Shown here piece after piece: positions 10,527 through 49,480 of a stretch of DNA of 60,447 nt (position 1 is the stretch's first letter; the number at the start of each line of letters is the position of its first letter). The DNA is from Acidimicrobiia bacterium (GTDB taxonomy: Bacteria; Actinomycetota; Acidimicrobiia; Spongiisociales; UBA5794), in contig JASJAS010000042.1 in NCBI GenBank assembly GCA_030066875.1, forward strand, positions 1 through 60,447, in the 5' to 3' direction. Made by a program: the position numbers and the translations under genes. A model generated the notes under the pieces. That model saw only the letters and a list, made by a program, of their open reading frames with translations, did no database searches and was not told where the DNA came from.

Positions 10527-11771
10527 CTATTCGGCGGACGCCCTCTCCGAAGGCATTGCGACCTCTACCTCTTCAGTATCCATCGGCAGGATCAGGTTGG
10601 CAACAACGCCGATAACGGCTGCCAGTGCCAGACCCGAGATCTCTACATCACCGATCGACAGCGGTGCTGACAGGCCGGAGACACCAAGACCGAACACCAA
10701 GATGAGGCCGACAACAATCATGTTGCGACCCTTCTTGAAATCGACTTGTCCCTCGACCAGCGTCCGCATACCAACTGAAGCGATCATGCCGAACAGCACA
10801 ACCGACAATCCACCCAAGACCGGCACCGGAACGGTGCGCAGGATGGCAGCCAGCTTCGGAATCAGGCCTAGCAGAACCGCAAACGCGGCACCGATTCGGA
10901 TGATGAACGGGTCGTAGACCTTGGTAACGGCCAGCACCCCCGTGTTCTCCGAGTACGTCGTGTTAGGCGGACCACCGACCAGGCCGGCGAATGCCGTTGC
11001 GATACCGTCACCAAGCAGTGTCCGGTTCAGACCGGGATCGTCGAAGAAGTCCTTACCAACGACTCGACCGTTGGCCAGGATGTCGCCGACGTGTTCGATC
11101 ATCGTCACAAAGGCAATCGGTGCGATCAACGCAATCGGTGCCCATGAGATGTCACCCAGACCCCAAGTGAAGTCCGGCCAGCCGATCCAGTCAGCCTCGC
11201 CGACCGCATCGAAGCTGAAATCGCTGTAGAACAGCGCAGCTGTGAGATAGCCGACGACGGCGCCCGTCAGGATCGGGAGCATCTGGAACAGGCCCCGGAA
11301 GAAGATCGCCGCGATGACCGTGGCGAGCAACGTCACGATGGCCAGCCACCACTCACCCTCCGCCATCCCAATGGCGACGGGAGCGAGCGTGATACCAATT
11401 ACCGTGATAACCGGGCCGGTGACGATCGGCGGGAAGATCCGCTTGATGACGTCGTGGCCGACGAACGTCACGATGATCGACATGGCGAGGTAAATGACTG
11501 CCGCACCCACGATGCCGGCACCGATGCCCGCCCAGGAGTAACCGCGCTCGACGCCGGTGATGATCGGCGGGATGAACGCAAACGACGAGCCCAAGAACAC
11601 CGGCACCATCTGCTTTGTCACCAGGTGGAACAGCAGAGTTCCTACGCCGGCTGCAATCAGAGCAACCGACGGGTTCAGCCCGGTGAGCAGCGGTACAAGG
11701 ACCGTCGCCCCGAACATGGCAATAGTGTGCTGCAACCCCAGCACAGTCTTCTTCTGCAGAGTTAGCTCCAT
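10527..11771 (-). CDS. uraA: NCS2 nucleobase:cation symporter (UraA/PyrP-like uracil permease)
   Basis: LGLQH..AMFGATVLVP, FLGSSFAFI, EHVGD and GGPPNTTYSENTGVLAVT signatures. Confidence 0.85.
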   Translation of the reverse strand: MELTLQKKTVLGLQHTIAMFGATVLVPLLTGLNPSVALIAAGVGTLLFHLVTKQMVPVFLGSSFAFIPPIITGVERGYSWAGIGAGIVGAAVIYLAMSIIVTFVGHDVIKRIFPPIVTGPVITVIGITLAPVAIGMAEGEWWLAIVTLLATVIAAIFFRGLFQMLPILTGAVVGYLTAALFYSDFSFDAVGEADWIGWPDFTWGLGDISWAPIALIAPIAFVTMIEHVGDILANGRVVGKDFFDDPGLNRTLLGDGIATAFAGLVGGPPNTTYSENTGVLAVTKVYDPFIIRIGAAFAVLLGLIPKLAAILRTVPVPVLGGLSVVLFGMIASVGMRTLVEGQVDFKKGRNMIVVGLILVFGLGVSGLSAPLSIGDVEISGLALAAVIGVVANLILPMDTEEVEVAMPSERASAE

Positions 11772-11973
11772 ATACCCTTCCTCTCCCACACGAGATGAAA
11801 GCCACCCCATCCGGAGTGGCTTTCCTTCCTCATCATCGGGTCTGTCACCCGAACCCGGTCGCTGCTCGGAGCCGCGACCAAGACTGTTGTCACTTCACCC
11901 GGTTCGACCGTCGCACGAGAAGGCTTCATGGTCCCTCCCCGTCTTGCGACCGTTGCTGGGTGCGTTTCTGCGG

Positions 11974-12321
11974 TCATGCTGCCCTGAACACCATCCCGTA
12001 GAAGTCGTCGTAGGTTTCTTTCCGTACCACTTCGACGGAGCCGGCTACGTCCATGCCGATTTGTGGATCCTCGATATCGAGTTGACCCAACATCCGCATG
12101 CCGTTCTCCAGCTCAACGATGCCGAGGCCGAGAGTAGCGACCTCGTATTGGGCGGGCAGGTTGTATACCCGGGTCCATGTCAGCAGTTTGCCGCTCTTGG
12201 GTAGCGGCACCGTATCGAACTCGAAGAAATCGTTCTGCTTGCAGCCCTTGCAGACCATCCGCATCGGATAGTGCATGGTTTCGCAGAGCCGGCACTTGTA
12301 GGCGTAGATCTCGCGGGCCAT
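11974..12321 (-). CDS. DUF35 Zn-ribbon/OB-fold protein (ChsH2-like acyl-CoA-binding partner)
   Basis: CRLC...CKGC zinc ribbon, G.LLTWT and GIVELENG.R; start overlaps the thiolase stop codon. Confidence 0.85.
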   Translation of the reverse strand: MAREIYAYKCRLCETMHYPMRMVCKGCKQNDFFEFDTVPLPKSGKLLTWTRVYNLPAQYEVATLGLGIVELENGMRMLGQLDIEDPQIGMDVAGSVEVVRKETYDDFYGMVFRAA

Positions 12322-47516: not shown

Positions 47517-48380
47517 TCACGAATGCGAACTGAACTCTACGAGGGACCGCGCCCCGAGCACGATCCCTGCGGCCAATGCCGGTCCCGAGCTGTGCCCCAC
47601 GTCTTGGAGTCGAGTATGGGCGCCGCCGATGTCACCCCGACCCGCAAGCGCTCGGATCAGTCGACCCGCCGGTTCGGCGACCTGCCCGCGAAGCCCGTAG
47701 CGAATGAGCGCGGCAGAGAACGTGGTCGTGCGGACGTCTGCGAGCTTCGTCAGGGGATGAGACACACGGTTGAGGAGTCGTTCTGCTTGGGCCAGTTGCA
47801 GCGCTTCTCCAAAGAGCCGAAGCGCCGCCAACGACCCGGCGACGTAGTCGTCTCCCTCGGGTGTCAGGCCCGATCCCTTGCCCAGAAGCGTCTTGGCGGT
47901 AGCCAGTAACTGTGTGGGGGAGAGGTTATGGAGGGCCTCGTGAAGGCCTTCCGGGTCGATGCCGGGAACGGATGACGGAAGGTAGGCGAGCGCCTCTTCG
48001 AGCTGTGCGGCGGTTAGCGCAGGTAGTGCGGGACGCGGGTCCCACCACCTACGGGCGACGACGGTGACATCCCCGAGCGTGATCCGGCCCTGACCGATTT
48101 CGACCTCGGCACCGTGCTGCACCGGCTGCAAGACCGCGTCTGCGGCATCGGCAGCTATCTCGACGGCGTTCGGAAGGCGGGTGGCGTCGCGGGTGGACAC
48201 AACAATGACCGCGTCCTCGAGACGGAGCCACACGGCGTAGGCAGAGGTGCCCAGGACCTCTGCGGTCCTGGGCACTGTGAGCAGGCCGTGGATCGCGGTA
48301 CTCGCCAAGCCAGCTACCAGCTGCGGAGCGTCGGCCTTCCGGCTTGCCGGCGACCCTTCAAGCGCCGTTGGGCGGGACAC
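47517..48380 (-). CDS. DUF2877 protein (YlbF/AllH-like)
   Basis: LLGKGSGLTPEGDD, TTTFS and GHSSG motifs. Confidence 0.85.
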   Translation of the reverse strand: MSRPTALEGSPASRKADAPQLVAGLASTAIHGLLTVPRTAEVLGTSAYAVWLRLEDAVIVVSTRDATRLPNAVEIAADAADAVLQPVQHGAEVEIGQGRITLGDVTVVARRWWDPRPALPALTAAQLEEALAYLPSSVPGIDPEGLHEALHNLSPTQLLATAKTLLGKGSGLTPEGDDYVAGSLAALRLFGEALQLAQAERLLNRVSHPLTKLADVRTTTFSAALIRYGLRGQVAEPAGRLIRALAGRGDIGGAHTRLQDVGHSSGPALAAGIVLGARSLVEFSSHS

Positions 48381-48382
48381 CC

Positions 48383-49480
48383 CTACCCGACGTCGACGAT
48401 CGCGGCTACGGGGCCGCCGCCACTGGGACCTTGATGCAAGGCCGCCACCGAGACAAACACCGCGGCGTCGTTGACGGCAGCACCGACTACGCCGCCGACC
48501 GCACCCTTGATGTGCCGGTGATGGTGGACGTCGGAATCGTCGAGTGACACCTGGCGCCGCCCGCGAAGACGCGAGGTCGGATCCGCTTCGCACTTGACGA
48601 ACACGTTGACGAGCTTGTCGCCTAGATCCTGGTACCGGGCTCGCTCGGGAAGGTCGAGGCCGGCGTTGCGGATCGCCCGATACACGCCTTCCTGATCGAG
48701 GGCGTCGTTCATCACGTCGTGGCCGATGCGATAGCGTCCACCGGCCCCGGGAGCGTTGCCCACAACCACGGTTTGCGCTTGGTCGAGTTCGACGCCCGAC
48801 GAGCACGACGCCACCGACGAGAAGAGGGTGAGGTCGTGGCCGATCTGCTCCGCGGTCGGCATCCCGATCTCGCCCAGGGCAACGGCGATCCCCAAGGCGG
48901 ATGTGCCGTTGGAGACGTTCATGGACTCCAGTGGATCCTCTGTGTAGACCGTGTGGCCGCGCGCCTTGGCGTCGTTGATCGTTTCCATGACCAGCAGCGG
49001 GGTCTTCGTTTGGACGTAGTGAACGTCGGCGGGATCCTCGATCCCGGCCTCGGCCATGGCCCGGCGCACCCCCTCGGCAACCTTCTCGACCATGGCAGGC
49101 CGGCCGATGTCTTCGGGAAGGATCACATCGCTCATCGCATAGCCGACCGCAAGACGCGGTTCACTCGACGCCGGCCCGTCGTCCTCGACCTTGGCGAACA
49201 CTGTGGCGTGCGGGCACAGGATGCCGTCCGTGCCGCCGGACCACACCATGGGGATCTCTTTGACCTCTTCGAAGGGTCGGGTGCCCTTGTCCATCAGCAC
49301 CTTGCGAAACGCTTGGTCGGCCAGGATCCGGGTGAAGTCGTTGACCCCGCCGTTGCCCTCGGTCTTGCCGACAACGGCTACGACGCCGTCGGCATCGAAC
49401 ACGCCATCATCAATCAGCTTTGCCAGCCCCGACGCGTCACTAACACTCTCGAGAACGACCTTCCGTACCTCTATGGCCAT
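48383..49480 (-). CDS. bar: Barbiturase (AtzD/cyclic amide hydrolase family, Toblerone fold)
   Basis: [46 protein letters not shown] and [15 protein letters not shown] and SVxxxHQ are barbiturase-type, not cyanuric acid hydrolase-type (SRG, SGGxEHQ). Confidence 0.85.

Follow-up and report, generated by a model that had tools for sequence, protein, structure and literature searches.

The question raised by this locus is whether two operons that lie apart on one contig belong to a single pathway and, if so, what becomes of the ureido group and the three-carbon (C3) unit of a pyrimidine ring. The window is a complete 60.4-kb contig (JASJAS010000042.1; 60,447 nucleotides) of a metagenome-assembled genome (MAG) from Acidimicrobiia, GCA_030066875.1. 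The MAG, at 81% completeness, comprises 171 contigs with a total of 3.16 Mb. Operon B (49480-44672) has four tightly packed minus-strand genes, encoding barbiturase (Bar) and homologues of the Escherichia coli proteins AllH, AllF, and AllG; the stops and starts of allH/allF and allF/allG overlap. Operon A (18013-10527) has seven minus-strand genes, encoding three subunits of a molybdenum (Mo) hydroxylase (Xdh), a protein of the GNAT fold (p252), a thiolase-like protein, a DUF35 protein, and an NCS2 permease. The two sets each form one half of a single conserved cluster. This cluster probably encodes an oxidative route for uracil and/or thymine in which the ureido group yields carbamoyl phosphate and ATP; we infer all of its substrates and reactions. 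The genes are as follows.

48383-49480, minus strand: Bar, barbiturase, a ring-opening amidohydrolase of the AtzD/TrzD family (PF09663, 480 bits, model positions 1-358 of 358)
47517-48380, minus strand: AllH-like subunit (DUF2877; PF11392, 70.8 bits), its start following the bar stop
46075-47520, minus strand: AllF-like subunit (FdrA) with coenzyme A (CoA)-binding and CoA-ligase domains (PF00549, PF02629)
44672-46078, minus strand: AllG-like subunit (DUF1116; PF06545, 301.7 bits), its start overlapping the allF stop
17129-18013, minus strand: flavin adenine dinucleotide (FAD) subunit of the Mo hydroxylase (PF00941, PF03450)
16651-17118, minus strand: 2Fe-2S subunit of the Mo hydroxylase, 155 residues (PF01799, 93.8 bits; PF00111)
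14273-16615, minus strand: molybdopterin subunit of the Mo hydroxylase, 780 residues, candidate uracil/thymine dehydrogenase (PF01315, PF02738, PF20256)
13489-14247, minus strand: p252, GNAT-fold protein, 252 residues (AlphaFold model and Foldseek)
12321-13496, minus strand: thiolase-like protein without the nucleophilic Cys (PF22691, 143.9 bits; PF00108, 80 bits)
11974-12321, minus strand: DUF35 protein, zinc ribbon and OB fold (PF01796, 33.8 bits)
10527-11810, minus strand: NCS2 nucleobase permease, closest to uracil permeases (PF00860, 296.9 bits)

In related Acidimicrobiia, the cluster is a co-directional series of 11 genes in the order bar-allH-allF-allG-xdhFAD-xdhFeS-xdhMo-p252-thiolase-DUF35-NCS2 permease. 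Bar loci were sampled as the best 80 of 406 Bar relatives (L002-L081), one genome per species, and all window proteins were compared with them. A flank of at least 4.9 kb after bar (60 loci) was required for scoring allF and allG, and one of at least 10.6 kb (43 loci) for the full cluster. Both allF and allG are present in 57 of the 60 loci and in 42 of the 43. Twenty-five of the 43 long loci hold the full series from bar to DUF35, with the same Xdh clade, all genes co-directional, and junctions that are short or overlapping. In nine of the 43, the Xdh is of another kind (28-32% identity). L041 and L047 have the block from xdh to DUF35 upstream of bar, and the permease directly follows DUF35 in L007, G001, G003, and G203. 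In the last of these, a high-quality genome from the window's own family, all 11 genes fit into 12.4 kb of a single strand.

A phylogenetic profile was drawn from 201 genomes of the class Acidimicrobiia. Bar is found in seven of them, spread over at least four families, and p252 is found in exactly those seven. AllG is found in the seven Bar genomes and in three others. The Bar-less AllG homologues (L201, L202, and L203, in G047, G038, and G200) are more distant, at 37-50% identity. Two of these three loci have no allF match nearby, and further cluster genes were not found within ~9 kb.

The following block parts the two halves in the window.

18014-44671, no strand: unrelated genes over ~26.7 kb, a block that the contiguous clusters of relatives lack

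On either side of this block, the halves keep the order and strand of the contiguous cluster. Most simply read, other DNA has come to separate allG from xdhFAD, and selection has continued to act on both halves. The split, with the order bar-allHFG-aph, is common to the nearest relatives, and p252 is retained in four of five near relatives that have it. In G576, bar and p252 share a contig and a strand, with 65 kb between them. The initial annotation had named, beforehand, a lack of co-occurrence of the two operons as a result that would refute its shared pathway. They do co-occur, as contiguous genes in 25 of the 43 long loci and G203 and as Bar and p252 in the same seven of 201 genomes. These results already contradict the view that the operons are functionally independent here and share a contig by chance. 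That view is very improbable, although the halves are 26.7 kb apart and the xdh half has its own upstream region after a hairpin; both halves are kept in four of the five near relatives after the split.

Bar scores 503.7 bits against TIGR02714 (cut-off 153). Its best solved relative is the barbiturase 5HWE (528.7 bits, E 6.9e-158), and the cyanuric acid hydrolases 6BUM (305.4 bits), 5T13 (305.1 bits), 4BVQ (246.7 bits), and 4NQ3 (238.6 bits) follow. The name given by NCBIfam, cyanuric acid hydrolase, was set aside because Bar is much closer to 5HWE in this PDB comparison (528.7 versus 305 bits). The 'SRG' of 6BUM and 5T13 is 'SNG' in both Bar and 5HWE, an Asn for an Arg. In the available part of PMC4051656, the barbiturase subgroup is described as being without the domain-B Arg kept in nearly all cyanuric acid hydrolases, and barbiturase as inactive on cyanuric acid. 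The subgroup residue named in that text is Gln; the exact SNG/SRG column is a reading of the present alignment. By affinity, the placement of Bar in the barbiturase subgroup is supported, and hydrolysis of barbiturate is predicted.

The three proteins encoded downstream of bar are homologous to E. coli proteins: AllG is 45% identical to YlbE/AllG (E 1e-120), AllF is 39% identical to FdrA/AllF (E 9e-88), and AllH is 31% identical to YlbF/AllH over 121 residues (E 2e-10). AllF scores 396.5 bits against the FdrA model NF004760, below the cut-off of 433. The AllG of operon B is the single AllG in this genome. The open reading frames (ORFs) of AllH and AllG, as first listed, are too long at their 5' ends. 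E. coli AllF, AllG, and AllH are reported in PMC11326118 to make up the oxamic transcarbamylase, which converts oxalurate and phosphate to carbamoyl phosphate and oxamate. Allantoin-pathway genes were not found among the window ORFs scanned by Pfam, and the context is instead barbiturase and Xdh. Ureidomalonate, the product of barbiturase, is oxalurate with one additional CH2, so cleavage with phosphate to carbamoyl phosphate and malonamate would be the most economical reading.

Carbamate kinase would then make ATP. In this genome, the enzyme is encoded elsewhere, on contig C95 next to ornithine transcarbamylase (381 bits, cut-off 358), and in other lineages it is encoded inside the cluster. 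Of the 80 Bar loci, 15 (Acidimicrobiales and Nitriliruptoria) have a carbamate kinase gene as a neighbour of bar/allHFG, and L078 adds a 73-residue match. A wider profile covered 401 genomes of the phylum Actinomycetota, 20 of which have Bar (a count that includes the unpublished G454, used for no other result), and 10 Bar loci from other Actinomycetota were inspected. Eight of these 10 have a carbamate kinase beside bar/allHFG, typically in the order PucR / bar-permease-kinase-allH-allF-allG-(Xdh). All four neighbour kinases that were scored are above an NCBIfam carbamate kinase cut-off, and one is above the arcC equivalog. These neighbours lend support to the energy-conserving carbamoyl transfer proposed in the initial annotation. 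ORF scans found no carbamate kinase, urease, or amidase in the window, and urease alpha was not found in this genome, at 81% completeness. The combination of AllFGH with AllK is reported from urease-negative enterobacteria in PMC11326118.

Operon A begins with xdhFAD, which has a TTG start and a GGAGG motif and lies behind a 192-nt intergenic region. The translation of the 2Fe-2S subunit begins with MNLELKVNG, and its Cys clusters are present. All modules of the xanthine oxidase family are found in the three subunits: Mo-pterin, two [2Fe-2S], and FAD. The Mo subunit is below every NCBIfam equivalog cut-off (score/cut-off: XdhA 515/780, 4hydrxCoA_A 474/995, pucD 431/784, CO_dehy_Mo_lg 322/991). 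Its nearest PDB relative is 1RM6, the alpha subunit of 4-hydroxybenzoyl-CoA reductase (319 bits), followed by CO dehydrogenase. The permease scores 342.4 bits against TIGR00801 (NCS2), above the cut-off of 291.8. The uracil permease PRK10720 is its best specific model (340.7 bits), yet below the cut-off of 477; RutG (271.7 bits) and pbuX (226.7 bits) are lower.

The window DNA has a guanine plus cytosine (GC) content of 63%, and genes in such high-GC DNA were called by homology and by reading of the ORFs. The genes named in the initial annotation are all present, on the minus strand and in the places given for them, but its single Mo/FeS/FAD hydroxylase is encoded as three separate subunits. 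A 937-residue ORF that appeared to join FeS and Mo modules (14273-17086, minus strand) is a frame artefact, since its first ~157 codons are Arg-rich and run out of frame over the real 2Fe-2S gene. A chimera of this alternative-frame kind is easily made in DNA of 63% GC.

The proposed route begins with the NCS2 permease, which would take up the base. The three-subunit Mo hydroxylase would oxidise the base at C6 to barbiturate or 5-methylbarbiturate, and barbiturase would open the ring to give ureidomalonate. The AllHFG paralogue, with phosphate, would then cleave the ureido bond to carbamoyl phosphate and malonamate, in place of the textbook hydrolysis to urea and malonate. These three reactions are predicted from homology and context. 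Lastly, p252 with the Cys-less thiolase and DUF35 may bring the C3 unit to a malonyl thioester and decarboxylate it; this is the weakest step and is suggested by context only.

p252 is without a Pfam or NCBIfam match even at E<=1. The family is rare, with 169 representatives at E<=1e-3 among 1.84 billion. The AlphaFold2 model has a predicted local distance difference test (pLDDT) score of 83.2. In Foldseek, it has 83 PDB matches at E<=0.001 (best E 2.7e-6), and all of those listed are GNAT-type acyltransferases, including the GNAT domains of PatZ and Pat. The acyl-CoA pyrophosphate-binding motif of GNATs is R-x-x-G-x-G/A; the 'RRGLRIGA' of p252 resembles this motif but departs from it. G91, H111, and K129 are among the invariant residues of p252.

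The thiolase-like protein scores 262 bits against 7YVY. Its 'ENGPASG' stands opposite 'EAACASG', so Pro replaces the nucleophilic Cys, and Pro is found at this position in 25 of 25 homologues. Thiolysis or Claisen condensation through an acyl-enzyme is therefore not possible. The histidine motifs HDAF and GHP are kept. Cys-to-Gln ketosynthases decarboxylate malonyl units, and a Cys-less thiolase fold with enolate-stabilising histidines could, by analogy, act in the same way. In DUF35, the four zinc-ribbon Cys are invariant in 12 aligned sequences. A model of the complex of thiolase, DUF35, and p252 reaches an ipSAE interface score of 0.68, with 0.00 for the best control; 58 of 80 solved complexes and 2 of 110 mismatched pairs score this high, a calibration that is only rough here because the present analysis's own alignments were used. 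The partner has a pLDDT of 75-82, and the runs share at least 70% of contacts. The model supports the binding of p252 to thiolase/DUF35. Solved thiolase/DUF35 complexes exist, so part of the model may stem from likeness to them; we know of no GNAT partner among the known complexes.

Distant relatives of p252 were sampled in metagenomes as the best 80 of 402 (L091-L170), a subgroup that is 31-40% identical to the window p252 and that includes many short contigs. In these 80 loci, p252 lies beside allF in 25, allG in 24, a Xdh Mo subunit (up to 70% identical to that of the window) in 23, bar in 12, a permease in 10, and thiolase or DUF35 in none. p252 belongs to the core of this type of cluster. 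An mmdA-like carboxyltransferase is found in 13 of the 80 loci; the genes that go with it, for a biotin carrier and a Na+-pump beta subunit, are found in 12 and 15 loci. A fused AccD/AccA-like carboxyltransferase comes right after p252 in 11 loci, eight of which hold Bar. A PF04199 'cyclase'-family hydrolase is next to p252 in 39 loci and in none of the 12 Bar loci. This enzyme may be a non-homologous substitute for the ring-opening step, or a malonamate amidase.

One such locus, L132 (a metagenome contig, GC 34%, positions 2103-19279), has a one-strand, anaerobe-type cluster without barbiturase. It begins with an NCS2 permease, PucR, AllH, an MmdA-like protein, OAD-gamma, a biotinyl carrier, and OAD-beta, and continues with p252, AllF, AllG, a PF04199 cyclase, carbamate kinase, and the Xdh FAD, FeS, and Mo subunits. 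By analogy of position only, thiolase/DUF35 in Acidimicrobiia would hold the place of the (methyl)malonyl-CoA-type enzymes found beside distant p252. The initial annotation assigned the C3 unit to the GNAT/thiolase/DUF35 set; this assignment is strengthened by the neighbouring decarboxylases and carboxyltransferases of malonyl-CoA type and by the complex model.

A broader reading is a widespread, modular, energy-conserving oxidative pyrimidine pathway, with phosphorolysis by AllHFG, a p252 step, exchangeable decarboxylases, and a cyclase in exchange for barbiturase. Taken as a whole, this reading is tentative and, on balance, doubtful. p252 would turn malonamate or ureidomalonate into a malonyl thioester, and a bound decarboxylase would pull the reaction. 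The decarboxylase would be thiolase/DUF35 in Acidimicrobiia, the AccD/AccA-like enzyme in other Bar-type clusters, and a Na+-pumping biotin enzyme in low-GC anaerobes. In these anaerobes, the PF04199 'cyclase'-family hydrolase would replace barbiturase.

The fate of ureidomalonate could differ from phosphorolysis in two ways, both unlikely. In the first, which is rather unlikely, cleavage depends on CoA: AllF, AllG, and AllH, together with p252, move the malonyl group of ureidomalonate to CoA, giving malonyl-CoA and urea without carbamoyl phosphate, and malonyl-CoA is then decarboxylated. The domains of AllF, which is like the alpha subunit of succinyl-CoA synthetase, and the CoA-dependent acyltransferase fold of p252, with PatZ and Pat among its matches, are consistent with this scheme, as are the malonyl-CoA-type decarboxylases or carboxyltransferases adjoining p252 relatives. 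By our own estimate, an acylurea can drive thioester formation and a plain amide cannot, so an uphill step would be avoided. The scheme leaves unexplained the carbamate kinases beside allH/allF, which occur with p252 in L132; it would also release urea in a genome (81% complete) where urease alpha was not found, and the E. coli homologues form carbamoyl phosphate according to the available text of PMC11326118. In the second, which is improbable, an enzyme not recognised here performs the textbook hydrolysis to urea and malonate, and AllHFG acts on another ureide (oxalurate, biuret, or carboxybiuret) under shared regulation. AllFGHK genes are next to biuret/triuret hydrolase genes in nitrifiers, as stated in part of PMC12625717, and in a quick AllG tree (6 of 95 matches left out as short or holding a stop) E. 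coli AllG is on a long branch among cyclase-linked sequences, with a backbone that is without support. The 'bar' label on this tree needs one change, and 0 of 500 shuffles were as low, on a branch that is itself without support. Against hydrolysis, 42 of the 43 long loci have AllF and AllG along with Bar, their starts and stops overlap, and this genome has a single AllG and no detected urease. Pfam scans of the window's main ORFs named no allantoin-pathway gene and no isochorismatase-type hydrolase; biuret hydrolase was not searched by name.

The substrate, too, could be a different N-heterocycle, for instance an oxopyrimidine that is substituted or derived from a purine, with the Bar homologue opening a related cyclic ureide. 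This is quite improbable. PucR-type regulators, of a purine-catabolism family, are near bar in 18 loci, no equivalog model assigns a specificity to Xdh, and the Xdh subunits differ widely between cluster types (28-70% identity). However, the solved barbiturase is by far the nearest family member to Bar, the permease scores best against uracil permease models, and a C3 product of malonyl or methylmalonyl type would suit the decarboxylase partners.

Several points weigh against the oxidative uracil/thymine route with carbamoyl phosphate formation. The Xdh is below all equivalog cut-offs, and an aromatic CoA ester is the substrate of its closest relative of known structure; use of uracil is a prediction. 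Bar also passes the NCBIfam equivalog for cyanuric acid amidohydrolase (CyanAcHdlAtzD, 461 bits, cut-off 360), a cut-off taken as lenient. The chemistry of AllFGH is founded on one E. coli study, and the AllG backbone is unsupported, so the oxalurate enzyme and a 'pyrimidine' clade are not separated in the tree. Bar occurs without allFG in L040, and eight long loci have allFG with no Xdh within reach. There is no carbamate kinase in the window or in any p252 locus of L002-L081; the 15 loci with a full-length kinase match are all without p252, and L132 has both. In L194 and L195 (G296 and G359), the kinase is directly upstream of bar, with no allH, allF, or allG within 9.5 kb on either side. 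The cluster has no amidase for malonamate. The passage from amide to thioester is uphill by our own estimate, so the last step would need pull from decarboxylation. Nearly all comparison loci come from MAGs or metagenome contigs, and related genomes do not count as independent samples.

The closest known system is the oxidative pathway of Rhodococcus erythropolis, made up of uracil/thymine dehydrogenase, barbiturase, and ureidomalonase. The window shares with it a barbiturase, a Mo/FeS/FAD hydroxylase able in principle to make barbiturate, and a uracil-type permease. In contrast, no hydrolytic ureidomalonase is evident here; AllHFG is beside bar, carbamate kinase joins in relatives, and the GNAT/thiolase/DUF35 module is added. 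Part of this account of the classical pathway is from PMC4051656. The E. coli AllFGH and AllK system, as covered in the available parts of PMC11326118 and PMC9843812, has the three homologous subunits, and the kinase is a neighbour in relatives of the window cluster. The E. coli order is allF-allG-allH-allK, whereas here it is allH-allF-allG, and the allantoin genes of E. coli give way to a context of barbiturase and Xdh, with no adjacent kinase in the window.

The thiolase module is like the archaeal thiolase/HMG-CoA synthase/DUF35, PhlACB, and Ltp2-ChsH2(DUF35) systems, which combine a thiolase fold, a zinc-ribbon/OB DUF35 protein, and a third catalytic partner. PDB relatives of the thiolase-like protein include 6ESQ, 5M3K (PhlC), 7PXP (BbsB), and 6OK1. 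Ltp2 is also Cys-less. The difference is that the third partner here has a GNAT fold and is not of the thiolase superfamily, and that the nucleophilic Cys is Pro. Na+-translocating methylmalonyl-/malonyl-CoA decarboxylases (MmdABCD) are found beside the p252 homologue in L132 and 12 other loci and are absent from the window. Other families serve in the reductive uric acid pathway of E. coli, according to the available part of a preprint (bioRxiv 10.1101/2025.05.19.654654).

The cluster represents a variant of the known oxidative pyrimidine pathway, with strong genomic linkage and predicted enzymology. That pathway is known from enzymology, and among its enzymes only barbiturase was found with a sequence in the open-access literature. 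In the open-access literature and preprints, no paper linking barbiturase with AllFGH, DUF1116, or DUF2877 was found, and none naming genes for ureidomalonase or uracil/thymine dehydrogenase. The cluster supplies candidate genes for uracil/thymine dehydrogenase. If true, the broader reading would give genes to this orphan enzyme and replace the orphan ureidomalonase. The cluster suggests that, instead of hydrolysing ureidomalonate to urea, many bacteria may split it with phosphate and gain ATP, which would add a second class of substrates to the newly defined AllFGH family. With p252 comes a rare family of GNAT fold whose metabolic context is conserved and for which a complex with a thiolase of altered catalysis is predicted. 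Where the cluster carries Na+-pumping decarboxylases, it points to pyrimidine fermentation as a way of growth in peat and anoxic sediments.

The 26.7-kb block in the window, which includes sugar and cell-envelope genes, carries genes for a Mvh-type NiFe hydrogenase, Hdr-like proteins, HycI, gpsA, an epimerase, galK, ROK, DUF3160, PGA_cap, Mut7-C, PMT_2, and an APH(6)-like kinase. Its 18206-26859 portion (minus strand) encodes the large and small subunits of the NiFe hydrogenase, the HycI protease, a 1157-residue fused HdrA-like flavoprotein with ferredoxin domains, a CCG-domain HdrB-like protein, and an HdrC-like protein. In the initial annotation, the Hdr-Mvh genes were read as a possible sign of an anaerobic or facultative host. 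A perfect 13-bp inverted repeat with a 7-nt loop and no T run (18148-18180) lies between the hydrogenase large-subunit gene and xdhFAD and may mark the end of the upstream unit. The kinase gene is at the other end of the block.

43792-44829, minus strand: APH(6)/hydroxyurea-resistance-type kinase gene, overlapping the allG end

An APH(6)-like gene follows allG in L005, L006, L008, and L016. It sits after allH in L025, where an allF/allG match was not found, and a match lies between allG and xdhFAD in the contiguous locus L019.

No PucR gene lies beside the window bar, where a 234-residue ORF without assignment (49868-50572) is found instead. A PucR-family regulator gene is present in 18 loci (L012, L015, L017-L019, L022-L024, L027, L060, L063, L064, L069, L071, L074, L075, L080, and L081). 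In L022, this gene is downstream of bar, between allH and allF; in the other 17, it is on the other strand, upstream of bar.

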